The notes: generated by a model not told the origin, from the sequence alone. Positions 1,478-23,475 are shown, numbered from the stretch's first letter. The stretch is 64,000 nt of DNA from an uncultured bacterium (GCA_963707655.1 OY970172.1:480001-544000), one strand, 5' to 3'. Program-made: numbers and translations.

Positions 1478-2245
1478 ATGAAATTCAATTCTTATTTCTG
1501 GCTTATTCCTTTTATCAGTTTTGTATTTGGTTATTATCTCGTTTCACTGGTGTATCAATCACCGGTGAGCAAAACCCCTTCTTTGGTTGGCACGTCATTA
1601 CAAGATGCTGTTTTGCAAACATCTGAATTAAATCTTAATATCCGCATTGTTGGCCACAAACAAGAAACCGATTTGCCCGAAGCTACGATTATGAGCCAAA
1701 TGCCTCAAGCGGGCACCGCTATTAAAGCAAACCAGGCGCTGTATTGCGTAATTTCTGAAAAGCCTGCTATACCCCATGTCCCTCATCTGCTCAAAAAAAA
1801 TAAAGAGGCAGTTATTGTCGAACTCAACAAGCGTGGCCTCCGCTTTAAAATCTTTTACACAGAAAGCATATTACCCCTGGATACGTGCGTTGCCCAATGG
1901 CCGAATTCAGGCACACAAGGGGATGTTACCAAGAGCGTGATTGTGTATCTTTCTGCCGGAAGCAATAAACCCATTATATGGCCCGACTTTAAAGGCATGC
2001 CATTGCCTGATGTGTTAGAATTTCTTGCCATACAAGGGATTAGCCCGATAGTGAACCATACAACATTACTCGAGCCTGGGCATGTTTGTGGGTATGATTG
2101 CCTGGTTGTTGACCAGCGCCCCGTGGCGGGCTCAATTTTGGCCCTTAACTCGAACAAAAACCTTCAAGTCCAATTGCAGGTTTGTTCACCCAACTCAAGC
2201 ACTGCGCCCAGCATGAATCGTAAAAAAAGCCGCTATCAAACCTAA
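1478..2245 (+). CDS. PASTA-domain membrane-anchored protein
   Basis: N-terminal TM followed by three PASTA-like repeats (PSLVG..L..A, SQ.P.AG, PDFKG..L, DQRP.AG). Confidence 0.8.
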   Translation: MKFNSYFWLIPFISFVFGYYLVSLVYQSPVSKTPSLVGTSLQDAVLQTSELNLNIRIVGHKQETDLPEATIMSQMPQAGTAIKANQALYCVISEKPAIPHVPHLLKKNKEAVIVELNKRGLRFKIFYTESILPLDTCVAQWPNSGTQGDVTKSVIVYLSAGSNKPIIWPDFKGMPLPDVLEFLAIQGISPIVNHTTLLEPGHVCGYDCLVVDQRPVAGSILALNSNKNLQVQLQVCSPNSSTAPSMNRKKSRYQT

Positions 2246-3238: not shown

Positions 3239-3269
3239 AAAAAAGCCTCGAACGTTCGAGGCTTTTTTT
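3239..3269. terminator. Bidirectional rho-independent terminator
   Basis: aaaaaaGCCTCGAAcgTTCGAGGCtttttttt between convergent genes. Confidence 0.85.
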
Positions 3270-5998
3270 TATTCAAGGTTATATTCTTTGCAGCGCCTAT
3301 TAACCGATGAGCGGTTTACCCCCAGAAAGGCAGCAATTTGATTCTGGTTTTTAAATTTGTTCCAGAGCATTGCCATTACTTTTTCATTACGCAGCGCATG
3401 CTTGCCCAAATCTGCTGCTTGTAACAGCTCCGGGTCATTGCTAACATGCACCGGCTGAAACTTGGTTTCTTCATAAATATTATGTTTCTTTGATTTGTGT
3501 ATGAGCAAGTTTTGCACTTTTGTTTTGAGCTCTATCAAGCTGACTGGCCGCGCACCGACCAATTTGTCTTTCTCTTTTTCATTTAACTCAAGAATATTCT
3601 TAAAATCATCTGTCTTTACCGTTTGCGCGCTAAATCCTTCTGCCAAATTGTGCAATTCCGATGCAGGCAATGTAGCCAACGGCGGCATGCTCAATGATGT
3701 TTTTTTTAATTCTTCGTACAGCGTTTTTGAAAATCTATTTTCTTCTACGAGTGCTGCGAGATTTTTATCGCTTGAACAGATGATGCGTATATTGCCCTGA
3801 TTTTTTTGATCACTTTTGAACGTGCCCCAAAAACCTGTTTTTAAATATTCAGCTAAATATTCTTGCGTTTCTTTGTCTAAGAAATCAACATTTTTAATAA
3901 ACAAAGTGCCGATATTATCAAGTTTTTCAAAAAGTGGTCGCTCGGTAGTTTTTATGCCAAAAATAGGGTTTATGCCAAAGATTTTTATGAGATAATCATT
4001 GTCCTTGACCGGTTCGTGCAAGCTTATAGTATGCAATGTCTCACGCAAATTAATGTGATGGATCAATTCAACCATTGCCTTTGTATCCTCCTCAGGAAGG
4101 TCCAACAGAAGGGCATTATTGCTCATGCCGATTTTGAGCAGATCGATCTTAAAATTAAGGAGCACTTCCCCTGAACCGGGTATGAGTTGATTAATTAATT
4201 GGCCCGACTTGGTGGTCTCTAGATACAGCAAGTAATCCCACTTGGTTGGGTCTTTAAGAAAAGAAATTTGCTTTTTTATAATGTCTGAAATTTCCGGATG
4301 ATAGATGGTGATAATGACATTGTTTTGCTCAAGATTGGGCACGCCGGATATAATAATTTTTTTACCGTCAGCATCGGTCGAAAAGGTGGTTTTTGAAATC
4401 TTGTATTCTTCTACCTGACTCCCCACTTCGCGTATTGCTTTGCTCAATGGATGACCCTCTTGCAGATTAAGATTTATTTTAATTAATTCTTTTGCAGCCT
4501 GATTGCCAAAAATAAAGCGACGATTTTTATAAAAGATAATGCCAATATCTTTTTGGTTATTCATGCGCAAGAATGAGCGCATGCTTTCTTTATACTGCAT
4601 GATTTCTTGCTCTTTATTATGCAATTCTTCTTTGAGCTCTTTTTCTTGCTGGACCAGTAAATCAAGATTCCTATTTTGTAATAAATTAATGATATTACCC
4701 AAGTAATTGGCAAAGACCAGCATCTCGTCATGGTCAACAATGCTATACAATTTGTTGGGACGCGCATTAAATTCTATGACCATATACGCGATAACTTTCT
4801 GCTTTTGATAAATGGGCAAAAACAGATCCGCATTAATTTTTTCAAGGAAATGAATCAAGGCACTGCGTCGCTTGTCTTCATCATAAAAATTGTTAAAGGT
4901 AAGTTCATCATAAATCAGAATTTGTGATTTTTTTATGAAATCACAAATATCGTTATCATGGGTACCCATAAAATCTTCAATGAATTGTTCTATTGAATGC
5001 AGTTGCTGAAATTGCATTTTACTGCTGTCATTGCGCACAATAAGCGTAACTTTTTTATGGGGAATGGTGAGAGATTTTTTTAAAAATGTTTGGGTAACTT
5101 GGGACAATTCATGAATGCCGCTCACTTTGCTAAGCTGTTCAAGAACTTCTTTAAACGTATCGACAAAGTTTGCGCGCTGCTTGGCGTGCAGATGCTTATC
5201 AAAATTGAGAAATCTGAGACCCAACACCTTTTGAATGCAGTAAAAAATACTATAACTGATTAAAAGAGTAGAGACACCCAAAATACTCGATTCGTAGATC
5301 TGTTGATGGAAAAAATGCTGTGCGGCGATAATACATTCCGCCAAAAGAAAAGGACAAAGCAGGTAAGAAATCAACACGGTGAGTTGTATTTTAAGAATTT
5401 TCGGTAATTTTTCTGTCCGTATGTTCTTGAAGGTAAAGAAAAGTGCCGGCAATATGACAATTGCCAAGAGATACAAGCTTACGTAACGTATGATGTTTAA
5501 CTCAAGTGATGATTGCAATGATGCGTCTGCCAACGCAGCATAGCGCTCCGCTTCATCAGTGAGATTATTATCAAAGAAAGCGATATAAATAAAATAAAAA
5601 ATCGTTGCCCCGCTCAAGGCTGTAGTAAATTTTTGCCACAAATTCAAACGATATTTTTTGTGAACAAAGCTTTCTATAAAGAGAGCAAGGAACTGATACT
5701 GCATAACCATTGCTGCCCACGAACAGCGAACAATAAAGATATGAAGACCGTAGGGAATCCACGGGAAGAAGATTTGTCGCGTTAGCTTGCTTATCCAGGC
5801 AACATCGCCAACCATTGATCCAAGTAATATCAATAGGAGAAAAAGCCACGGAAGCTTAAAAGATGAAGTGCGCAATCCCTTGGGAACCAAGAGCGTTATC
5901 AAATATATTTTTATGCTTAGGGCCACCCACATAGTAAATAAGAGAAAATGGGGCGTTTTCAGCATGGCATAGAGCGAAGATAGTGATTCTATAGGCAT
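3269..5998 (-). CDS. Membrane one-component regulator A: multi-TM sensor + GAF/PAS-like region + degenerate sigma54-interaction AAA+ + Fis-type HTH
   Basis: About 7 hydrophobic segments in the first 260 aa; bEBP-like motifs GTLFIKNVDFL..ETQ..L, RIICSS..NL...V...RF...LY..L, MPPL; C-terminal HTH NQNQIAAFLGVNRSSVNRRCKEY. Confidence 0.85.
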   Translation of the reverse strand: MPIESLSSLYAMLKTPHFLLFTMWVALSIKIYLITLLVPKGLRTSSFKLPWLFLLLILLGSMVGDVAWISKLTRQIFFPWIPYGLHIFIVRCSWAAMVMQYQFLALFIESFVHKKYRLNLWQKFTTALSGATIFYFIYIAFFDNNLTDEAERYAALADASLQSSLELNIIRYVSLYLLAIVILPALFFTFKNIRTEKLPKILKIQLTVLISYLLCPFLLAECIIAAQHFFHQQIYESSILGVSTLLISYSIFYCIQKVLGLRFLNFDKHLHAKQRANFVDTFKEVLEQLSKVSGIHELSQVTQTFLKKSLTIPHKKVTLIVRNDSSKMQFQQLHSIEQFIEDFMGTHDNDICDFIKKSQILIYDELTFNNFYDEDKRRSALIHFLEKINADLFLPIYQKQKVIAYMVIEFNARPNKLYSIVDHDEMLVFANYLGNIINLLQNRNLDLLVQQEKELKEELHNKEQEIMQYKESMRSFLRMNNQKDIGIIFYKNRRFIFGNQAAKELIKINLNLQEGHPLSKAIREVGSQVEEYKISKTTFSTDADGKKIIISGVPNLEQNNVIITIYHPEISDIIKKQISFLKDPTKWDYLLYLETTKSGQLINQLIPGSGEVLLNFKIDLLKIGMSNNALLLDLPEEDTKAMVELIHHINLRETLHTISLHEPVKDNDYLIKIFGINPIFGIKTTERPLFEKLDNIGTLFIKNVDFLDKETQEYLAEYLKTGFWGTFKSDQKNQGNIRIICSSDKNLAALVEENRFSKTLYEELKKTSLSMPPLATLPASELHNLAEGFSAQTVKTDDFKNILELNEKEKDKLVGARPVSLIELKTKVQNLLIHKSKKHNIYEETKFQPVHVSNDPELLQAADLGKHALRNEKVMAMLWNKFKNQNQIAAFLGVNRSSVNRRCKEYNLE

Positions 5999-6003
5999 AA
6001 CTA

Positions 6004-6032
6004 TTGATCTTCCTTTTGACTGCTATTATACT
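6004..6032 (+). promoter_or_regulatory. Sigma70-type promoter for small peptide gene A
   Basis: TTGATC (6004-6009), 17 nt spacer, TATACT (6027-6032); same hexamers and spacing as 8963-8991. Confidence 0.75.
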
Positions 6033-6093
6033 ACTACTCCATAATACTAAAGCCACAAATAATTTCTAACAACTTTATGTTTAAGGATTGCTA

Positions 6094-6174
6094 ATGATCA
6101 GTTTGTTTTTCATGAAACTTCTCACTCTTGCTTTTTTTGTTGTTATGCTGCTCCGCTACCCGCCTAATGCGTAA
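6094..6174 (+). CDS. Small hydrophobic peptide A (26 aa, MISLFFMKLLTLAFFVVMLLRYPPNA); putative ligand or partner of regulator A
   Basis: Below the ORF-track cutoff. AAGGA RBS before the ATG, conserved promoter, C-terminal YPPNA matching FPPNR of the 9034 peptide. Alternative start at 6112. Confidence 0.65.
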   Translation: MISLFFMKLLTLAFFVVMLLRYPPNA

Positions 6175-6263
6175 TAGCTTAGCTTCTCGCACCGAACAGA
6201 AGAAGTAAAGACACACTTGTGATATTATTGCAGAAAAATAGTCTTTTTACTAAAGCCTATTTT

Positions 6264-8957
6264 TTACTCTAAATTAAACTCTTTGCATCGTCTATTGACT
6301 GATGAGCGGTTGACGCCTAAAAATGACGCGATTTTATTCTGATTCTTAAATTTATCCCACAACATTACCATGATCCGCTGATCGCGCAGGGCATGTTTGC
6401 CCAGACGCGCGGCTTGAATAAGTTCAGGAGACGTTGTCTCATACGCAGCATGAAACTGCGGCTCATGTTCTATCTCGTTTTTCTTTGATTTTGCTATTAA
6501 TAATTGCTGAATCTTTGTTTTAAGCTCTTGCAGACTTATTGGTCGGACAAGAGCTATTTTTGTTTTCTCTTTATCGGTAAGCTCAAACAAATTCCCCAGG
6601 GGCTGTTCTTGGAGCGCAATAGCGCTAAAACCATCAGCCAATGTATCAAGTTCATTTTGAGGCAAAGTGAGCAATGATGGCATGCTTAAACTTGTTTTTT
6701 TCAGCTCATTAAACAACGCCGCAGAAAAAGTGCCCTCATGCACGCGTGCGGATAAATTCTGGTTACTTGAACAGATAATGCGCACCGAGCTGCTTATTTT
6801 CTGGTCGCTTTTAAAGACACGGAATATGCCATATTTTAAATATTCAGCTAAATATTCCTGCGCTTCCATCTCTAAAAAGTGAATGTTTTCTATAAAAAGA
6901 GTTGCCGTGTTATCAAGCTTTTCAAGCAACGATTTGTTTGGCGATGTGCTAAAAATAGGATTAATGCCAAACAGTTTGATTGCATTTTCAAAATTGCGTG
7001 CCGGTGATTGCAGAGTGAGAATATGCAGCGTATCACGCAGGCTGATATGGTGTATGATTTCAACGGTGGGCATAAGATCTTCAGTAGACATTTCAAGCAA
7101 AAGCGCTTTTTTGGTGAGCGCCATTTTGAGAAACTCAATTTTAAAATTGAGCAACGTTTCACCCGATCCGGGAATAAGTTGGTTAATTAACTGGCCCGAC
7201 TTGGTCGTCTCCAGATAGAGAAGATAATCCCATTTGGTTGGATCTTTGAGCAAATCAATTTGACGTTTTACAATATCGGAAATATCAGGATGATAGAGGG
7301 TAATGATAACATTGTTTTTTTCAAGATTTGGCACGCCGGCAATAACTATTTTGTTGCCATCATTATCAAGAGCAATCATTGATTGCGGCGATTTATATTC
7401 TTCTACCTGAGTGGCAACCTGCTTTATTGCTTTGGTCAGAGGATGTCCCTCGTGCGTATTAAGGTTGATTTTAACCAATTCTTGTGCTGTTTGATTGCCA
7501 AAAGTAAAGCGGCGACTTTTGTAGAATAAGATGCCGATTTCTTTTTGTTTATTGGAGCGCAAAAATGAGCGAATGCTTTCTTTATACTGGTTTATCTCTT
7601 GATGCTTGCCATAAAGCTCCTCTTTGAGCTCTTTTTCATGAGCAAGCAGTGCTTCCAATTTTCGATTCTGTAATAAATAAATAATATTACCTACATAGTT
7701 GGCAAAGACCAACATCTCATCCTGCTCAACCTTGCTATAAAAATTATTGTTGCGCGCATAGCGGTCAATAATAATATAAGCGATGAGAATATTGTTTTTA
7801 TAAAGAGGAATAAAAACATCTGCATTAAGCGCTTCTAATAGATTGAGCAATGTTTTTTGCGTCTCTTCCTCATCATAAAAATTAGTAAAATCAAGTTCGT
7901 CGGTGATGAGTATTTCTTTGTTTTTTAATACTTCCACTGCTGCCGATTGCGTTGCAAGGAAAGTTTCAATAACCATTTCAACCCTGTTGTTTTCTCCATT
8001 ACTTTCTCCGTTAACAGCCTGCTTGGCGCGGGTATAAAGCAGTGTGCGATTTACCGGAGTATTAAAATTCTCTTTAAAAAACGTCTGGGTAATATGGCTT
8101 AATTCTTTAGGATTGGTAACCATACTCAGCTGTTCAAGAACATCTTTAAAATTGTTTACAAAGTTGAATCGTGCTGCCGCTTGCACATGATCATTCAGAT
8201 TAAGAAAACGCAAACCGGTCACACGGCGCGAGCAATAATAAATCGCGTAGGCAAGCAAGAGGTTTGAAAGCCCAACCGCTGCATAGCTACTGGTAATATA
8301 TGAGGGAATAACAAAATTGAAAGGATATACTTGGATAAAATCAAAGAAAAGGTGGGGGATAATGAATGCTCTGATAATAATAGAAAGCTGTTTTTTAAGT
8401 AAGCGGGGAAGTTGCTTGTTGCGCAATTGCCAATACACATAAAAGAGACTGGGCATGATGAGCGGGAAAAGGCAATACAAAGAACAGATTCTTTGTAGAT
8501 TATAGAGTATGATGCTTTTCACGCCGGTATGCCAACTGACAAAGGCTTCAGATAAGAACGCAACAACAAAGAATGCACTGAGCAAAAGAAAGATGGCTCG
8601 GCGCAGAGTGATTTTATACTGTGGCTCTACAAAGCTTTCTATAAACAGGGCCAATGATTGATATTGTATTACCGGAAATGCCCATGCGATGCGCACCCAA
8701 AGGGTGGAATCCATGTTAGGAAGAAAAAGCCGTGAAATAAGTTCAACGATCCAGGCTGAGTCAACAACTGATGCGCCAATCAATACACCGCACAAAAGCC
8801 AGATAGATCGGTGAGAGTTTTTAGAGGCAGAAAGACTGCGCGTTAAAAGATAAATCAGTAAAAATATTTTAAAACTGAAAGTACACGCAAGAATGGTTAA
8901 CAAATAGTACTGATTACCCAGTATTGTTTCTAGAGAATGTAGAAAAGTTGTTATCAT
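6264..8957 (-). CDS. Membrane one-component regulator B, paralog of 3269-5998
   Basis: Same architecture; near-identical LKDPTKWDYLLYLETTKSGQLINQLIPGSGE block and HTH; diverged TM region. Confidence 0.85.
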   Translation of the reverse strand: MITTFLHSLETILGNQYYLLTILACTFSFKIFLLIYLLTRSLSASKNSHRSIWLLCGVLIGASVVDSAWIVELISRLFLPNMDSTLWVRIAWAFPVIQYQSLALFIESFVEPQYKITLRRAIFLLLSAFFVVAFLSEAFVSWHTGVKSIILYNLQRICSLYCLFPLIMPSLFYVYWQLRNKQLPRLLKKQLSIIIRAFIIPHLFFDFIQVYPFNFVIPSYITSSYAAVGLSNLLLAYAIYYCSRRVTGLRFLNLNDHVQAAARFNFVNNFKDVLEQLSMVTNPKELSHITQTFFKENFNTPVNRTLLYTRAKQAVNGESNGENNRVEMVIETFLATQSAAVEVLKNKEILITDELDFTNFYDEEETQKTLLNLLEALNADVFIPLYKNNILIAYIIIDRYARNNNFYSKVEQDEMLVFANYVGNIIYLLQNRKLEALLAHEKELKEELYGKHQEINQYKESIRSFLRSNKQKEIGILFYKSRRFTFGNQTAQELVKINLNTHEGHPLTKAIKQVATQVEEYKSPQSMIALDNDGNKIVIAGVPNLEKNNVIITLYHPDISDIVKRQIDLLKDPTKWDYLLYLETTKSGQLINQLIPGSGETLLNFKIEFLKMALTKKALLLEMSTEDLMPTVEIIHHISLRDTLHILTLQSPARNFENAIKLFGINPIFSTSPNKSLLEKLDNTATLFIENIHFLEMEAQEYLAEYLKYGIFRVFKSDQKISSSVRIICSSNQNLSARVHEGTFSAALFNELKKTSLSMPSLLTLPQNELDTLADGFSAIALQEQPLGNLFELTDKEKTKIALVRPISLQELKTKIQQLLIAKSKKNEIEHEPQFHAAYETTSPELIQAARLGKHALRDQRIMVMLWDKFKNQNKIASFLGVNRSSVNRRCKEFNLE

Positions 8958-8962
8958 AACTA

Positions 8963-8991
8963 TTGATCTTCAATATTCAAAAAGCTATACT
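8963..8991 (+). promoter_or_regulatory. Sigma70-type promoter for small peptide gene B
   Basis: TTGATC (8963-8968), 17 nt spacer, TATACT (8986-8991). Confidence 0.75.
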
Positions 8992-9033
8992 TGTCTTCAA
9001 ATTTCACCGAGCTATTTCCTTAGGAGGATTTCT

Positions 9034-9141
9034 ATGAACAAACTGAAAAATGTTATCAATTTCCTGTGTTCTCCCTACTTTCAAGTAGCAGTTGCGCTGG
9101 TTATGGTATTTGCATTTGATGAATTTCCACCAAACAGATAA
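9034..9141 (+). CDS. Small hydrophobic peptide B (35 aa, MNKLKNVINFLCSPYFQVAVALVMVFAFDEFPPNR); putative ligand or partner of regulator B
   Basis: Perfect AGGAGG RBS at 9022-9027, conserved promoter, basic N-terminus, hydrophobic core and FPPNR tail. Confidence 0.75.
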   Translation: MNKLKNVINFLCSPYFQVAVALVMVFAFDEFPPNR

Positions 9142-9242
9142 ATCATCTTGTTTCTTGATTCTACCATAAATGGTAAACATGAACAAATTGGGTTTTAATG
9201 CGCCTGGAAATTCAATAATGGCAATTAAAATTTTTATTAGAG

Positions 9243-9914
9243 GTGCATGACATGACTGAGCGTGAACGGGTGGAAAAAATTATCCATCTCTTGCGCAAAA
9301 ATACCGTTGGTATGGTCGATCCTGCATCTCTTTCTCTTATTAAAAAATTCGGTCACAATCCGTTTATTGTCCTGGTAGGCTGCATGCTCAGCCTCCGCAC
9401 TCAAGATAAAGTCTCTCTCCCTGCATCGCTCAGGCTCTTTGAGCACGCAAAAACTCCTCAAGAAATACTGTCACTCCCGCTCCATTCGCTAGAAAAACTG
9501 ATTTATCCGGTTGGTTTTTATCGTAATAAAGCAAAATATATTCATTTGACCTGCAAAAAGCTAATTCAAGATTTTAATGGCACAGTGCCACAAACACGAG
9601 ACGAGCTTCTTACATTGCCCGGCGTCGGACGCAAAACTGCCAATCTCGTTTTGGGAGAGGCATTTGGCATTCCGGCTATTTGTGTTGATACCCATGTGCA
9701 TAAAGTTTCTAATCGTTTGGGCATTGTAGCCACAACAACAGTTGAAGAAACAGAAGAAGCACTCATGAAAGTGCTTCCTGAAAAATATTGGATCGAATAC
9801 AATCGGCTTTTGGTTATGTGGGGGCAAAATGTTTGTTTGCCCATCTCGCCACTCTGTTCACAATGCGTTCTTTTGCCGCTCTGCCCGCAAAAAGGTGTTA
9901 TCCGCCACCGTTAA
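9243..9914 (+). CDS. nth: Endonuclease III
   Basis: HhH motif LPGVGRKTANLVL, VDTHV, and 4Fe-4S motif C-x6-C-x2-C-x5-C. Start may be the ATG at 9252. Confidence 0.95.
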   Translation: MHDMTERERVEKIIHLLRKNTVGMVDPASLSLIKKFGHNPFIVLVGCMLSLRTQDKVSLPASLRLFEHAKTPQEILSLPLHSLEKLIYPVGFYRNKAKYIHLTCKKLIQDFNGTVPQTRDELLTLPGVGRKTANLVLGEAFGIPAICVDTHVHKVSNRLGIVATTTVEETEEALMKVLPEKYWIEYNRLLVMWGQNVCLPISPLCSQCVLLPLCPQKGVIRHR

Positions 9915-14390: not shown

Positions 14391-15044
14391 TTAATCCTGC
14401 TTTTTCAGAAGATCATAGATTTCTTTCCTTGTTGCTACAAGAGCATACGGCTCTTTGGTGAATTTTTCAGCCAGCTGCAATGCAGAAAGGCCAATATGAT
14501 GCGCACGCTGAAAAGCCTGTATTTTTTCATCCGCTTCCACTTGCCCACAGCGACTTAAAAGGACGCAACCAACAACGCGAAGATTATCCGATTCAGCAGC
14601 TATTTCTTCTAATTTAATATCGCTCTCGGCAACATTAGATGCATAGCGGATCTTTTTCATTTTGTCGGCACCGGCGGCAAGTAATATTTTAACACATTCT
14701 AAATTGCCTTGATCAACCGCTTCTTGCAGCGGAGTATGATAGCTCGCCATTACTGTGTCATTAATTTGCTTTTTATACCTTGGGTAGTAGCGGTCAAAAT
14801 CACTAAGATTTTCTTTTGCTGCCAATTTGTGCTTTAACCACCAGGCACAATCTGCATGGGCTAAATATAAATAATCGGTTCTTATGGTGAGCTTTGGGCA
14901 GATGTAGGAGCCTACAGTGTATGCAATGGCGGAAAGATCGTTGCAGCAGCCGACCTCGATTGCCTCTGCTTCATGGTCATCCATAGCGAACAGTGGCATG
15001 GAGACAAATGTTGATAAGGCGAGTATTAAAAGATTTTTTTTCAT
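14391..15044 (-). CDS. Secreted ankyrin-repeat protein
   Basis: Signal peptide ending LFA-MDD; TPLQEAVDQGNLECVKILLAAGAD. Confidence 0.8.
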   Translation of the reverse strand: MKKNLLILALSTFVSMPLFAMDDHEAEAIEVGCCNDLSAIAYTVGSYICPKLTIRTDYLYLAHADCAWWLKHKLAAKENLSDFDRYYPRYKKQINDTVMASYHTPLQEAVDQGNLECVKILLAAGADKMKKIRYASNVAESDIKLEEIAAESDNLRVVGCVLLSRCGQVEADEKIQAFQRAHHIGLSALQLAEKFTKEPYALVATRKEIYDLLKKQD

Positions 15045-17766: not shown

Positions 17767-19597
17767 ATGGATTTGAAAAAGATCGACCTTAAAGAATTCA
17801 CCCCGGACCGTGCAGAAATTTTTCTATTATTGCCCATATCGATCATGGCAAATCAACGCTATCTGACCGCTTCTTGAAGTGACCGGCACCCTTATCCGAT
17901 CGCGTAAAACATGAACAGTTTCTTGATAAACTGCAGGTGGAAAAAGAGCGCGGCATTACCGTAAAAGCACAAACTGCCTCAATGTTTTATGAGTATAAAG
18001 GCGTAACCTATCTTCTAAATTTGATTGATACTCCCGGCCACGTTGATTTCAGCTATGAAGTTTCTCGCTCACTCTATGCCTGCCAAGGAGCATTGCTTCT
18101 GGTGGATGCAGCTCAGGGAGTGCAGGCACAAACCATGGCAAATTTTTATCTTGCATTTGATCAAGATCTAACCATTATTCCGGTTATTAATAAAATTGAT
18201 ATGGCCAATGCGCAGATCCAGAACGAGTTACTAAGCAGATTGAAAACTTATTTGATTTTCAAGCCAGAAGAAGATTGCTCAAGCTTCGGCAAAAACTGGC
18301 ATTGGCATGCATGAAATTTTAAAGCAGTTATCAAACGAATTCCTGCACCAAAAGGCAACCTGCAAGCACCACTTAAAGCACTGCTTTTTGATTCATGGTT
18401 TGATGAATATCGCGGCGTTATCTGTTTGATTGCGATGCAAAGATGGCATCATTAAAAAAGGTGACATAATTACCCTTGCGCAAATGACAAGTGAACTATG
18501 AAGTGCTTGAACTTGGTCTAATGTATCCTGATGAAGCACCCATGGATGCACTGTATGCGGGCCAAGTTGGTTACTTGATTACCGGCATGAAAACGGTAAA
18601 AGAAGCACGTGTTGGTGATACCTATATATCATACCAAAAAACCGGTCACGCCATTTCCTGGATTTAAACCAGCAAAGCCGATGGTATTTGCCGGTATTTA
18701 TCCCGTAGAAAATTCAGAATTTGAACTATTGCGCGATGCAATTGAAAAATTAACACTCAATGATGCAAGCGTAACTGTTGAAAAGAAAACATCTGCTGCA
18801 CTTGGTCTTGGTTTCCGATGTGGATTTTTGGGATTGTTGCACATGGATGTATTCAAACAACGTCTTGAACAAGAATATAATATTACGGTTATTGCAACCG
18901 CACCAAGCGTACTATATAAAGTAAAATTGACCACATACAGGTGAAATAGTTGATATTGAAAACCCATCAGATTTTCCTGAGCCAAATCAAATCGAAGAAA
19001 TTTTTGAACCGATTATCAATGCCACCATTATTGTACCAAAACAATATTTGGGCAATATTATTAAGCTGTGTGAAGAAAAGCGTGGCAAACAAATTGATAT
19101 GAGCTATCTTGATGAAGATCGCGTTATCTTGAAATACAAACTTCCACTCAATGAAGTTGCTACCGATTTTTATGATCAACTCAAATCGCTCAGTTCCGGA
19201 TATGCAAGCTTTGATTATGAAGAAGCAGGCTATCGAACCGGCAGATTTGGTTAAAATGGATATTTTGCTCAATGGTAAAGCAGTTGATGCACTTTCATGC
19301 TATTGTGCATGAAGATAAAGCATATTATATTGGCCGAGATTTTGCCGAACGTCTTGCGAAAAGCTAATTCCGCGCCAACTTTTTGAAGTTGCCATTCAAG
19401 CAGCTATTGGCGCAAAAATTATTGCGCGCGAAAGCATTTCTGCCTTGCGCAAAGACGTAACGGCAAAATGTTATGGCGGTGATATTTCCCGTAAACGTAA
19501 ATTGCTTGAAAAACAAAAAGAAGGTAAAAAGCGAATGAAACAAGTGGGCAATGTTGAAGTTCCACAAGAAGCATTTTTGAGCATTTTGAAAAAATAA
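17767..19597 (+). pseudogene. lepA: Elongation factor 4 (LepA) with about ten or more frameshifts
   Basis: Fragments in changing frames: [71 protein letters not shown]. Confidence 0.92.
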
Positions 19598-19776: not shown

Positions 19777-20595
19777 GTGAAAATACACATCTCACTACTC
19801 TTGCTACTGGCCTGCATGATGCAACAATACAGTTACAACATGGAGGAAGATTTCTCTGATGACAATTATTCAGATTCAAGCGATATCGCCGCAATGGAAC
19901 AGATTTGGGAAAACCTGCCACTAAATTTTTTATTGCCGATATTGCCACATCTGAAGCCATTAGAGCAAAGGAGTACTGTTGATGAAGCGTGGCGCACCGT
20001 ATCGCCGTTTCCCGTTTTAAAAACCAAATATTTTGAAGCGCTCTGTGACCCAGCATGCTACATAAGCGAAGATGATGACGAAATTCGCCGCAACATTGCT
20101 GCCGCTCTTTGTGTGGACGTATCTCCCAACCATCCATTCATGCACCATTATTTTGTGCATTTCATACAGAAGAGTGATTACGATCTCATAAAGCTGATGC
20201 TTTACAAAAAAGTAAATCCTTGTTGCAAAGCAGGTCCCAGCCATGCGCTCTGCTCTGCACAAACAGTACAAATGGCTCAATTATTAGTAGACCAAGGTGC
20301 CGATTGCAACGCCACCAATGAATGTGGCAATCTCATACACAATACCCTCATGAACTCATTCGAACCAAGACTAATTGGTTATTATGCGGCCACAGGAGTA
20401 AGCTTTGAGCATAGAAACAAAGACGGACTCACCCCATTAGATTATTTCTGTCGAAAATCTATGTACACCAGCAAACTTACCAAAAAGTATATTAAGGCAT
20501 TTTTGAACGCAGGAATAACTGAAGAACAAATAGCCGATGGATTTGGACCCTTACCAGAAACGTGGCAAGAAGTTGAACCACGAGATTGGCGATAA
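19777..20595 (+). CDS. Secreted ankyrin-repeat protein
   Basis: Signal peptide; AQLLVDQGADCNATN and NKDGLTPLD ankyrin motifs. Confidence 0.75.
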   Translation: MKIHISLLLLLACMMQQYSYNMEEDFSDDNYSDSSDIAAMEQIWENLPLNFLLPILPHLKPLEQRSTVDEAWRTVSPFPVLKTKYFEALCDPACYISEDDDEIRRNIAAALCVDVSPNHPFMHHYFVHFIQKSDYDLIKLMLYKKVNPCCKAGPSHALCSAQTVQMAQLLVDQGADCNATNECGNLIHNTLMNSFEPRLIGYYAATGVSFEHRNKDGLTPLDYFCRKSMYTSKLTKKYIKAFLNAGITEEQIADGFGPLPETWQEVEPRDWR

Positions 20596-21678: not shown

Positions 21679-23475
21679 ATGAATCGCCTCAAACAAATGT
21701 TATTGGCTCTGTTATGCATGGGCGGTGGCATTAGCCCCATCTTGTCTGCGGAACAACCATCTGCGGAACGACTTGCTCAAGAAGAATCCAATAATGTCAT
21801 TATACTATTTCAAGACTCGGACACTAAGAAAGAAGTAGATCGCCTTCCTCTGACCAGGCAAGAATTTAATATGCTCAAAAATGCATCTCAAGTCATAGGG
21901 GATATGGTTCAAGATCTTGGACAATCTCAAGTCACAGAAATACCTCTCAATAATAAGTATATTGATAAAGCAATGTTAAGACAGGCGCTGGATATTTTAC
22001 GCGCATACGAAGGGCTAAAGTCTCTATCTTTGCCCGGATATCAGGGTGTAGTTGCGGCAAGCAAAGATAAAAACGTGTTGCAGAGAAATATAGAAAAATT
22101 GATACTGCAAATAAATGCCCTGGGTCAAGGGTTTATAATAGCAGTCGATTATCTGGGTATTGAACTACCGCTCATAAAAACAGCCATGATTAATAAGATG
22201 GTCGCCAAGAATAATCTATTATATGATTTTCCAAAAATCCTAACCGGCCACACCGACGCGGTGTATTCTATTGCGTGCAGCCCTGATGGCAAATATATTG
22301 CCAGCGGTTCCTGGGACAAAACCGTCCGTGTGTGGAATGTTGACCTGGGAACTCTCGCATATACCCTAACCGGCCACAATCAACCGGTGTATTCTGTAGC
22401 ATGGAGCCCTGATGGCAACTTTATCGCCAGTGGTTCGTCGGATAAAACAATCCGCGTGTGGGATGTGCAAACACAACAAATAGCTTATACTCTAACCGAC
22501 CGCACTAACACGGTGTATTCTGTAGCATGGAGCCCTGATGGTAACTCTATTGCCGGTGGTTCTCATGACGCAACTGTCCGCGTGTGGGATGTGCAAACGC
22601 AATCTCTTGCCTATACCCTAACCGGCCATACTGGTGTGGCATGGTCTGTTGCATGGAGCCCTGATGGCAACTACATTGCCAGTGGTTCTTTTGACGAAAA
22701 AATACGCGTGTGGGACGTGCAACGGCGAACTCTCGCATACACCCTAACCGGCCACACTGATGCGGTGCGTTCTGTTGCGTGGAGTCCTGATGGCAACTTT
22801 ATTGCCAGCGGTTCTCATGACAACACGGTCCGCGTGTGGAATGCTCACACGCATCAAGCAGCCTATATCCTAACCAAGGCAGGCTATATTGCGCCGCACC
22901 CTTATGATCATGGCAAATATAAGGTAGGCTCTGTTGCGTGGAGCCCTGATGGCAAATATATTGCCGGCGGTTCGGATGACCGAACAGTACGCGTGTGGAA
23001 TGTTCAAACGCATCAAGTAGCCTATACCCTAACCAAGGCAGGCTTTGTCGCGTGGAGTCCTAGTGACGAATATAAGGTAGGCTCCATTGTATGGAGCCCT
23101 GACGGCAAATACATTGCCAGTGGCTCAAATGACAAAACAATACTCGTGTGGGATCGGAATCCGCTCGAAAGGCTAAACCTTGCTCGAGTGTTATTGATGC
23201 ACACTATCATTGTCTCCAAGAAACTCCCCATCATAATCCCCGAGCAGTCAATACTTCAAGGACCGTCGGAAAAAGCATCTAACATCATGAGTGCCAAAAA
23301 CTCTCCGCAAAATCCGCCCCCGGTGCCGCAGGAGTTGACGCGCGTTGTCTACATGCAACAATTGTTTAACAGCCTGCCCCAGTCAATGCAAGAGTATTTG
23401 TCTACCGTGGCGAAACCTCAACCTCTTCCTCAATCAATAAAAGACGGTATTGATAAAATTTTACGAGCGCAATAG
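21679..23475 (+). CDS. Secreted protein: Skp1/BTB-like N-domain + 7 WD40 repeats
   Basis: Signal peptide; SQVIGDMVQDLG..EIPL and IIAVDYLGIE; repeats GH...V.SVAWSPDG..IASGS.D.T.RVW. Confidence 0.9.
   Translation: MNRLKQMLLALLCMGGGISPILSAEQPSAERLAQEESNNVIILFQDSDTKKEVDRLPLTRQEFNMLKNASQVIGDMVQDLGQSQVTEIPLNNKYIDKAMLRQALDILRAYEGLKSLSLPGYQGVVAASKDKNVLQRNIEKLILQINALGQGFIIAVDYLGIELPLIKTAMINKMVAKNNLLYDFPKILTGHTDAVYSIACSPDGKYIASGSWDKTVRVWNVDLGTLAYTLTGHNQPVYSVAWSPDGNFIASGSSDKTIRVWDVQTQQIAYTLTDRTNTVYSVAWSPDGNSIAGGSHDATVRVWDVQTQSLAYTLTGHTGVAWSVAWSPDGNYIASGSFDEKIRVWDVQRRTLAYTLTGHTDAVRSVAWSPDGNFIASGSHDNTVRVWNAHTHQAAYILTKAGYIAPHPYDHGKYKVGSVAWSPDGKYIAGGSDDRTVRVWNVQTHQVAYTLTKAGFVAWSPSDEYKVGSIVWSPDGKYIASGSNDKTILVWDRNPLERLNLARVLLMHTIIVSKKLPIIIPEQSILQGPSEKASNIMSAKNSPQNPPPVPQELTRVVYMQQLFNSLPQSMQEYLSTVAKPQPLPQSIKDGIDKILRAQ

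Follow-up and report, generated by a model that had tools for sequence, protein, structure and literature searches.

In the SHP/Rgg systems of streptococci, transcription of the genes shp and rgg is divergent and several paralogous pairs occur per genome; SHPs are active through their C-terminal part, which is cut before a conserved acidic residue, and one characterized precursor, SHP1299, has F-P-P-F-G as its last residues (PMC3679016, in the part available to us). In the prgQ/prgX pair of pCF10 from Enterococcus faecalis, the two transcription units are convergent over 223 nucleotides (nt) and form a switch under reciprocal antisense RNA control, and the short RNA also encodes the peptide iCF10 (excerpts of PMC3181467). 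Here we analyzed a locus with likenesses to both pairs in a 64,000-nt stretch of DNA from an uncultured bacterium (GCA_963707655.1 OY970172.1), hereafter the window, which covers bases 480001-544000 of the single 1.09-Mb contig of its genome (88.6% complete by markers); positions are counted from the first base of the window. The locus consists of two large paralogous regulator genes, each faced on the opposite strand by a small open reading frame (ORF) for a hydrophobic peptide with Pro-Pro (PP) close to its C-terminus. We favor, with modest confidence, the reading that regulator and facing small gene form a cognate peptide/receptor-regulator module with reciprocal control. The source names of the regulator's homologues placed the genome in the Dependentiae/Babeliales. 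Dependentiae are obligate intracellular parasites of protists, with genomes of about 1 Mb and very few regulators.

Regulator 1 (909 amino acids (aa); 3269..5998, minus strand) and its paralogue regulator 2 (897 aa; 6264..8957, minus strand) are each faced by a small ORF on the plus strand. Peptide gene 1 (6094..6174, from ATG to stop) encodes the 26-aa peptide MISLFFMKLLTLAFFVVMLLRYPPNA, which has a hydrophobic core and the tail R-Y-P-P-N-A; it is preceded by a Shine-Dalgarno-like AAGGA at 6083..6087 and by a match to a promoter pattern (TTGATC, 17 nt, TATACT) at 6004..6032, both on the plus strand. Peptide gene 2 (9034..9141, plus strand) encodes the 35-aa peptide MNKLKNVINFLCSPYFQVAVALVMVFAFDEFPPNR, with a hydrophobic core and the tail D-E-F-P-P-N-R, and has on the same strand a Shine-Dalgarno sequence, AGGAGG, at 9022..9027 and a match to the same promoter pattern (TTGATC, 17 nt, TATACT) at 8963..8991. 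The start codons of regulator and peptide gene are separated by 95 nt in module 1 and 76 nt in module 2. An initial annotation, made from the sequence of the window alone, had given these distances as 77-96 nt, which is the same result counted inclusively, and the two ORFs and ribosome-binding sites that it had described facing the regulators were confirmed in sequence and position, as was the use of different Pro and Asn codons in peptide 1 (CCG CCT AAT) and peptide 2 (CCA CCA AAC). A Pfam search with both peptides of the window matched no family.

Facing small ORFs were searched for among the homologues of the regulator. The 178 loci collected contained 145 distinct regulators, and for 121 of these the distinct upstream DNA extended over 350 nt or more; as some of the 121 loci are still from near-relatives, the counts do not stand for independent events. 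The rule for a peptide gene, fixed before counting, was a length of 18-70 aa, PP in the last six residues, and a 13-residue window with a mean hydropathy of at least 1.6. Of the 121 loci, 82 had an ORF of this kind on the divergent strand, as the initial annotation had expected of homologous loci, and 1 had it on the regulator strand; each of 20 dinucleotide shuffles gave 0-1. Most of the 39 loci that failed the rule carried variants, either with a longer tail or, in one monophyletic group, with P-G-G for P-P-G. A looser chooser, which favored P[PGT] tails and was hence biased, found a hydrophobic ORF in 110 of the 121 loci, 104 of them with a PP or P[GTS] tail. A Shine-Dalgarno-like 4-mer preceded the ATG in 90 of these 104 loci (shuffle mean, 3.6), and the pattern TTGNNN-N16-18-TANNNT, mostly in the form TTGAnC, 17 nt, TATACT, was present on the peptide strand in 92, on the other strand in 6, and in shuffles at a mean of 14.3. 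The Pro codons in the 104 loci were CCA (79), CCT (76), CCG (27), and CCC (4), and the pooled ratio of nonsynonymous to synonymous differences (pN/pS) was 0.37 over nine close peptide-gene pairs. In the genome carrying the window, 40 of 15,130 ATG ORFs of 18-70 aa passed the peptide rule, 7 of the 40 also had a Shine-Dalgarno sequence, and the only 2 with a promoter in addition were 6094-6174 and 9034-9141. Judged from their sequences, the small ORFs are real, conserved, and expression-competent genes, with a promoter, a ribosome-binding site, and purifying selection.

The peptides of the family had a median length of 32 aa. Their N-terminal flank contained 167 Lys or Arg and 13 Asp or Glu residues, and their C-terminal flank 53 and 74, respectively, an asymmetry that fits an orientation with the N-terminus in and the C-terminus out. 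The tail motif began a median of three residues past the hydrophobic window, and PP, the sole near-invariant element, was followed by exactly two residues in 63 of 104 peptides and by one to three residues in 87. The [Y/F]PPN motif proposed in the initial annotation holds only within the window, since the residue after PP was Asn in 3 of 104 peptides and Gly in 30. Two residues before PP, Asp or Glu occurred in 42 peptides, Gly in 14, and Arg in 10, and Asp or Glu stood three residues before PP in 15 of 104. The family-wide tail can thus be written as x-P-P (or P-G) plus one to three residues, often preceded by an acidic residue and, in the second paralogue, by Arg. Tails of the type P-G-G, P-G-S, or P-T-G in place of P-P-G formed a monophyletic group (L042, L044, L050, L052, L109, L110, L111, L163, and L166), and the second Pro can therefore be replaced within a lineage. 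In some longer peptides (L165, L126, L143, L127, and L101), two or three x-P-P-x units followed the hydrophobic segment, which recalls multi-copy peptide precursors.

The two regulators of the window showed 51% identity overall (469/914) and 35% over the first 280 residues, and were near-identical in the last ~40 residues, in agreement with the earlier observation that they diverge most in the sensor and hardly at all in the helix-turn-helix (HTH). The sensor comprises residues 1-265 of regulator 1 (5204..5998, minus strand) and, by alignment, residues 1-253 of regulator 2 (8199..8957, minus strand). The model of regulator 1 residues 1-265 (predicted local distance difference test (pLDDT) score, 91.1; predicted template-modeling (pTM) score, 0.89) contained seven membrane helices, with the N-terminus out, the C-terminus in, and the basic loops, by eye, on the cytoplasmic side. 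When this seven-transmembrane (7TM) domain was compared with 48,161 chains by VIA-align, all of the top 50 had the fold of G-protein-coupled receptors (GPCRs), with Z scores of 14.3-16.7 and root-mean-square deviations (rmsd) of 3.5-5.8 over 213-258 aligned residues; the superposition reached a Z score of up to 16.7, with an rmsd of 3.9 over 225 residues. The Foldseek result for the domain was weak (best E, 2.8e-3). Because helical bundles reach a Z score of ~14 by arrangement alone, we interpret this similarity as a shared GPCR fold, not as kinship. According to the model, the N-terminus of the regulator is a GPCR-like 7TM bundle by fold, and the invariant residues W68, R91, W94, and E166 were placed by eye in the outer halves of its helices.

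In the model of full-length regulator 1 (pLDDT, 78.8), the 7TM domain was followed by two alpha/beta domains, an AAA+ core, and a C-terminal HTH; the alpha/beta domains are called GAF-like and PAS-like here, labels that come only from secondary structure and source names. In Pfam, the regulators matched nothing but positions 86-167 of the 168 in the sigma-54 activator profile, its C-terminal half, and NCBIfam alignments extended to the C-terminus of the regulator with every score far below its cut-off (e.g. DhaR, 52.5 vs 551 bits). With the central domain, Foldseek detected NtrX (3e-10), PspF (TM score, 0.70-0.72 by target), and VpsR, which indicated an AAA+ fold. To check the motor motifs, a profile of 28 homologues was aligned to NtrC-type structures (3dzd). 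Walker A, the GAFTGA loop, and Walker B were all replaced: 'GesGtGKe' of 3dzd aligned to 'elpeeDllp', 'GaFtGa' to 'inp.lf.ga', and 'gtLFlDEv' to 'gtLfikni'. By sequence and predicted structure, the regulator thus joins a GPCR-like 7TM domain to a sigma-54-activator core that is ATPase-dead and to a Fis-type HTH; in regulator 1, the degenerate core corresponds to residues ~590-838 (3485..4231, minus strand) and the HTH, which is nearly invariant across the family, to residues 856-905 (3284..3433, minus strand). The models in this respect support the earlier proposal that a receptor-like domain and a DNA-binding output are joined in one polypeptide. Sigma54_DBD was found in 0 of 41 genomes, including that of the window, by a search that was positive in 4 of 14 known control genomes, and Sigma54_CBD was not found in the 1.09-Mb contig of the 88.6% complete genome. 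The database label 'sigma-54 interacting regulator' is probably wrong in function.

Neither a kinase domain nor an Rgg or TPR domain was detected in the Pfam scan of the regulators, and in a Pfam search of 60 of the 7TM domains no family was matched by more than one member. HisKA_7TM (PF16927), to which the ESM Atlas pointed (score, 0.92; 18% of one cluster), found no support, as 0 of the 60 7TM domains matched it at E<=1. Of 1.84 billion cluster representatives, a profile search with the 7TM domain retrieved only 412; most of the best 150 were ~900 aa long, and the shorter entries may be fragments. The regulator was present in 35 of 41 related genomes, often in tandem, and in two copies in the genome of the window; being kept so widely and often duplicated, it is likely to be a main environmental switch of the lineage. 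In some genomes a third, far more distant paralogue (~31% identity) lies in tandem with both regulators (e.g. G020:C12:17580-20288), and one genome (G013) has several split or partial regulator copies.

An endonuclease III-like (nth) gene (HhH-GPD, E 1.5e-25; 9243..9914, plus strand) lies 3' of peptide gene 2, and in 80 of 108 loci, likewise, the peptide gene had such a gene behind it in the same orientation, with a median gap of 68 nt. The gap contained a promoter pattern of its own in 17 of 80 loci (shuffle mean, 11.7) and a terminator-like hairpin in 9 of 80 (shuffles, 0-5). With no promoter pattern of its own and few terminators in the gap, nth may share a transcript with the peptide gene as its distal part, and such a transcript, if made, may read through the promoter of the regulator. 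The peptide gene was also kept where nth is absent. In 18 of the 121 loci, the regulator faces the 3' end of another regulator and not nth, and 13 of these 18 retained a PP-tailed hydrophobic ORF. In genomes with tandem pairs, each regulator copy had its own P-P- or P-G/P-T-tailed ORF in 8 of 8 cases; the claim that each regulator has its own peptide gene therefore extends beyond the window, in that tandem copies usually keep one. The tail was acidic or neutral in the nth-proximal copy of these pairs and R-x-P-P in the other copy in 6 of 8. In a FastTree phylogeny of 104 regulators, regulator 1 belonged to a 12-row clade (P0001) without nth, in which 8 of 12 rows have Arg two residues before PP, and regulator 2 to a 54-row nth-linked clade without this Arg. 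The charge difference between tails thus goes back mostly to one old duplication. As far as gene arrangement goes, these results showed that the peptide genes go with the regulator, not with the other neighbors.

The -35 element of the peptide promoter started a median of 7 nt from the ATG of the regulator. For the regulator itself, a sigma-70 -35/-10 pattern was found in the intergenic region of 12 of 104 loci, a shuffle-like frequency, and the search was therefore moved beyond the peptide gene. There, the regulator strand carried an extended -10 (TGnTAnnnT), 13 nt (median) beyond the stop of the peptide gene, in 65 of the 80 loci linked to nth and in 14 of the 30 others; the peptide strand had it in 11 and 3 loci, respectively, and shuffles in a mean of 10.5 and 4.0. 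The motif had been noticed in the data first, and the pattern afterwards tested was the textbook extended -10. Both promoter patterns occurred in 78 of 110 loci, giving a predicted overlap of the transcription units of ~150 nt (median). In the window, the predicted promoter of regulator 2 (TTGTTC, 17 nt, extended -10 TGGTAGAAT; 9158..9186, minus strand; a pattern match) lies 17 nt beyond the stop of peptide gene 2 and would give a ~194-nt leader antisense to the whole of this gene. An extended -10 past the peptide stop would place the peptide gene nested and antisense within the leader of the regulator. The arrangement described as divergent in the initial annotation hence holds for the ORFs, which lie back-to-back, but the transcription units are probably convergent, with the extended -10 past the peptide stop in 79 of 110 loci.

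A motif TANCAYAR located after the peptide stop in 45 of 80 loci was considered as an nth promoter or hairpin and rejected; the extended -10 of the regulator, read as its reverse complement, accounts for it better. Apart from the extended -35 (taTTGAnCTT) and the -10, the surroundings of the peptide promoter showed no conserved repeat resembling an operator. Directly behind peptide gene 2, at 9162-9175, is a palindrome, TACCATAAATGGTA, that shares bases with the extended -10 predicted for regulator 2. Palindromes with swapped bases, e.g. TAGCAT...ATGCTA (L060 and L066), stand at the equivalent place in related loci. An RNA hairpin or a binding site for a dimer would fit this element as well as a promoter. 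A search of 5900-9400 against Rfam gave a single match at chance level (E 0.92).

If regulator and small gene form a cognate module, the basic N-terminus of the membrane-inserted peptide would stay in the cytoplasm, and the short tail, which often has an acidic residue or Arg ahead of x-Pro-Pro-x-x-COOH, would lie on the periplasmic face. There the tail would meet an outward-facing polar and aromatic pocket in the GPCR-like 7TM bundle of its own regulator, either as part of the anchored peptide or once the peptide has been cleaved within the membrane ahead of the tail. The signal would be relayed through the GAF-like domain, the PAS-like domain, and the dead AAA+ core to the C-terminal HTH, which presumably acts with an ordinary sigma factor, since sigma-54 was not found. 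At the level of transcription, the peptide promoter would fire away from the regulator, and the extended -10 promoter of the regulator would fire back through the peptide gene. Being convergent over ~150 nt, the two units should repress each other by collision and antisense pairing and thus form a switch as in prgQ/prgX. Within the cognate-pair reading, a local action of the peptide, autocrine or membrane-tethered, is a tentative possibility, and true cell-to-cell signaling is somewhat unlikely. A more specific proposal, which we consider unlikely as a whole, is a peptide pheromone of the Dependentiae: a ~30-residue precursor would be cut to an acidic or Arg-x-Pro-Pro-x-x peptide of 5-8 residues and sensed outside the cell by the 7TM-transcription factor, and the convergent toggle would make the population within one host cell switch together, a form of infection-density sensing that uses no kinase, import, or sigma-54. 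The charge-reversed tails of the two paralogous modules would then keep the channels apart, and the precursors with two or three PP units would be multi-copy pheromone precursors.

Several observations weigh against a cognate module. Gene order around the regulator is conserved across the order (among 129 regulators, the neighbors were nth-like in 71 and, by eye, recombinase-like in 66 and threonyl-tRNA synthetase (ThrRS)-like in 43), and together with nth downstream in most loci this makes adjacency alone weak evidence. Five of the 18 regulators that face another regulator's 3' end retained only a short PP-containing ORF without a hydrophobic core, and two of the six RxPP peptides from tandem pairs (G011 and G012) were not hydrophobic; core-less peptides of this kind cannot act as membrane-inserted ligands. 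The conservation of PP is confounded, because CCNCCN is also present in the predicted antisense leader of the regulator as GGNGG, a caveat that holds for the other readings as well. Both promoters are pattern matches, and regulator 1 in the window has only a loose match, the weak candidate extended -10 TGCAATAAT at 6224..6232 (minus strand), where the strict pattern does not occur. A survey of sequencing runs listed 10 DNA runs with small shares of matching sequence and no RNA run. Peptide binding, secretion, cleavage, and expression all stand as putative. The co-variation of peptide and sensor that the initial annotation had predicted was recovered in part. In a partial Mantel test, which is weak and inflated by shared ancestry, tail divergence correlated with that of the 7TM domain once the cytoplasmic part was removed (partial r, 0.185; none of 300 permutations reached this value) and did not follow that of the cytoplasmic part (partial r, 0.022), but no charge complementarity between tail and receptor survived 1,002 tests (best p, 5e-5, at a cytoplasmic position). 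Complex prediction with alignments of the regulator 2 7TM domain and peptide 2 gave no verdict (scores of 0.33, 0.01, and 0.20 against a mark of 0.32) and counts neither way. A core lost with R/Q/H-aromatic-P-P kept was seen in L185 (G011), L186 (G012), L188 (G020), L098, L105, L116, L119, and L172, and in G020 both small ORFs were barely hydrophobic; core-less ORFs of second copies may be decaying genes or a non-membrane variant.

The PP tail itself can be explained without any role for the peptide, if the small gene is a regulatory upstream ORF in which a Pro-Pro pause two codons before the stop controls read-through into nth, its translation, or pairing with the antisense leader. PP is the only near-invariant element and is often followed by Gly (30/104), and Arg stands two residues before it in 10 of 104 peptides, among them 8 of 12 rows of the P0001 clade and 6 of 8 second copies. 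RxPP is a known motif that arrests ribosomes, with the Arg being critical, and a RAPP-containing upstream ORF that controls an operon is cited in the accessible part of PMC10951233. Such a role also agrees with nth lying downstream in 80 of 108 loci (median distance, 68 nt), with no promoter pattern of its own and few terminators in between, and with the second-copy ORFs that keep PP and lose the hydrophobic core. However, the Arg is absent in 94 of 104 peptides, where Asp/Glu (42) and Gly (14) dominate, and a pause site needs neither a hydrophobic core nor a positive-inside asymmetry nor purifying selection over the whole ORF. With a median of 32 aa and a motif three residues past the core, the peptide would still be in the exit tunnel at the pause, so that force sensing of the SecM/MifM type cannot work on so short a chain. 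Furthermore, elongation factor P (EF-P) is encoded, and the 18 tandem copies have no co-directional downstream gene. We consider this explanation decidedly improbable.

It is quite unlikely that the peptide is an independent small membrane protein, such as a stress or transport accessory or a type I toxin-like protein, which is a target or a mere neighbor of the regulator and does not act on its sensor domain. Type I toxin-antitoxin loci typically consist of small hydrophobic peptides with antisense transcripts, a likeness that favors this explanation, as do the order-wide conservation of the gene order and the putative status of peptide binding to the 7TM domain. On the other hand, where the regulator is duplicated, its peptide gene has come along and the other neighbors have not, peptide genes and regulators are equal in number in the genome of the window (2 and 2), the tail class differs between paralogous copies with tail divergence following the 7TM domain, and the promoters of peptide gene and regulator interlock. 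A third explanation takes the transcript as the product: a cis-antisense RNA would control the long leader of the regulator, and the ORF would be incidental or secondary. This agrees with the position of the predicted regulator promoter, which in most loci makes the whole small gene antisense to the leader, and in pCF10 the Qs and Anti-Q RNAs of the overlap are themselves regulators (PMC3181467, in the section available). But the RNA of pCF10 is bifunctional and still encodes a peptide, and in the present family 90 of 104 loci have a conserved Shine-Dalgarno sequence at the proper distance, most loci keep an open frame, pN/pS is 0.37, and amino-acid classes (basic N-terminus, hydrophobic core, acidic or aromatic residues before PP) are conserved in varied codons. 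An RNA product alone seems very improbable to us.

Other genes of the window were noted in passing. A 255-aa membrane-anchored protein with a PASTA domain (E 1.1e-15) is encoded at 1478-2245 (plus strand). Pieces of a LepA/EF4-type GTPase were recognized by eye at 17937-18314 and 18609-18944 (plus strand; region 17937-19272), where the gene looks fragmented. Ankyrin-like and WD40-repeat proteins were likewise identified by eye at 14391-15044, 19777-20595, and 21679-23475, the last being a 598-aa protein with many WSPDG-containing repeat units; eukaryote-like repeat proteins are expected in an intracellular parasite.

No paper on a module of regulator and micropeptide was found, nor one joining Dependentiae with sigma-54, and the part of PMC6561590 available to us, on Dependentiae, names only merR, yebC, and fmdB as transcriptional regulators. 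The most likely reading of the module is a pair of peptide and receptor that belongs to an undescribed kind. The convergent promoter geometry, the genome-wide specificity of both ORFs, the rule of tail length, and the paralogue-specific tails are new here. If the peptide is the ligand, a GPCR-like seven-helix receptor and a DNA-binding output would be united in one chain with its own micropeptide, an architecture undescribed before, and the receptor would have been built from a sigma-54 activator that lost its motor.

Among known systems, the sigma-54-independent relatives of bacterial enhancer-binding proteins (bEBPs), NtrX and VpsR, share with the regulator the bEBP AAA+ fold, a C-terminal Fis-type HTH, and no need for sigma-54, but the regulator has other residues in place of Walker A, Walker B, and GAFTGA, and its N-terminal sensor consists of a 7TM bundle. 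TyrR is another such relative. AgrC and ComP are histidine kinases with separate response regulators, and their systems have the dedicated processing enzymes AgrB and ComQ. The parallel with Agr and ComQXP drawn in the initial annotation is apt for the polytopic membrane sensor, the nearby small peptide gene, and the diverging peptide-receptor pairs; it is loose otherwise, as the Pfam scan found no kinase domain and no adjacent processing gene was seen, and SHP/Rgg and prgQ/prgX are closer. The mgrB gene is not adjacent to phoPQ. In pairs of the MgrB/PhoQ type, a small single-pass peptide acts as feedback on the membrane or periplasmic part of the sensor (PMC2789325 and PMC8404706, both in part). 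The present peptides, a few dozen residues long and encoded next to a membrane sensor, would similarly be single-pass, but PhoQ is a histidine kinase, and MgrB has no PP tail and no sequence relation to them. The arrest peptides ApdA and ApdP carry the RAPP/RxPP motif at residues 120-134 (PMC10951233, same part). With these and with SecM/MifM, the second-paralogue peptides, including peptide 1 of the window, share an N-terminal hydrophobic segment and, as in ApdA and ApdP, a C-terminal R-x-P-P, and a same-strand gene follows in most loci. The motif lies near the N-terminus in these short peptides, however, its Arg is missing from 94 of 104, including peptide 2 of the window, and what lies downstream is nth or another regulator's 3' end rather than a gene for a Sec/YidC localization component.

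As in SHP/Rgg, a short hydrophobic peptide gene faces the regulator on the opposite strand (82 of 121 loci vs 1 of 121). The receptor differs, being a 7TM domain with a dead AAA+ core and a C-terminal Fis-type HTH in place of a cytoplasmic Rgg/TPR protein with an N-terminal XRE-type HTH; an oligopeptide permease would not have to import the peptide, the acidic residue stands only one or two residues before PP, and secretion of the peptides is putative. An M50/Eep-type protease gene is present in the genome of the window, and M50 genes also occur in 14 of 14 control genomes. The predicted likeness to prgQ/prgX lies in genes for a small hydrophobic peptide and a regulator that would be read from convergent promoters, with the regulator promoter inside or beyond the peptide unit and mutually antisense 5' parts, over 223 nt in pCF10 and a predicted ~150 nt here, whereas the promoters here are predicted from patterns, the proteins are unrelated, and the downstream gene is nth and not a set of conjugation genes. 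If the reading as a cognate module is true, the logic of a hydrophobic peptide facing its regulator and the convergent switch of Gram-positive pheromones would extend to an unrelated diderm phylum.

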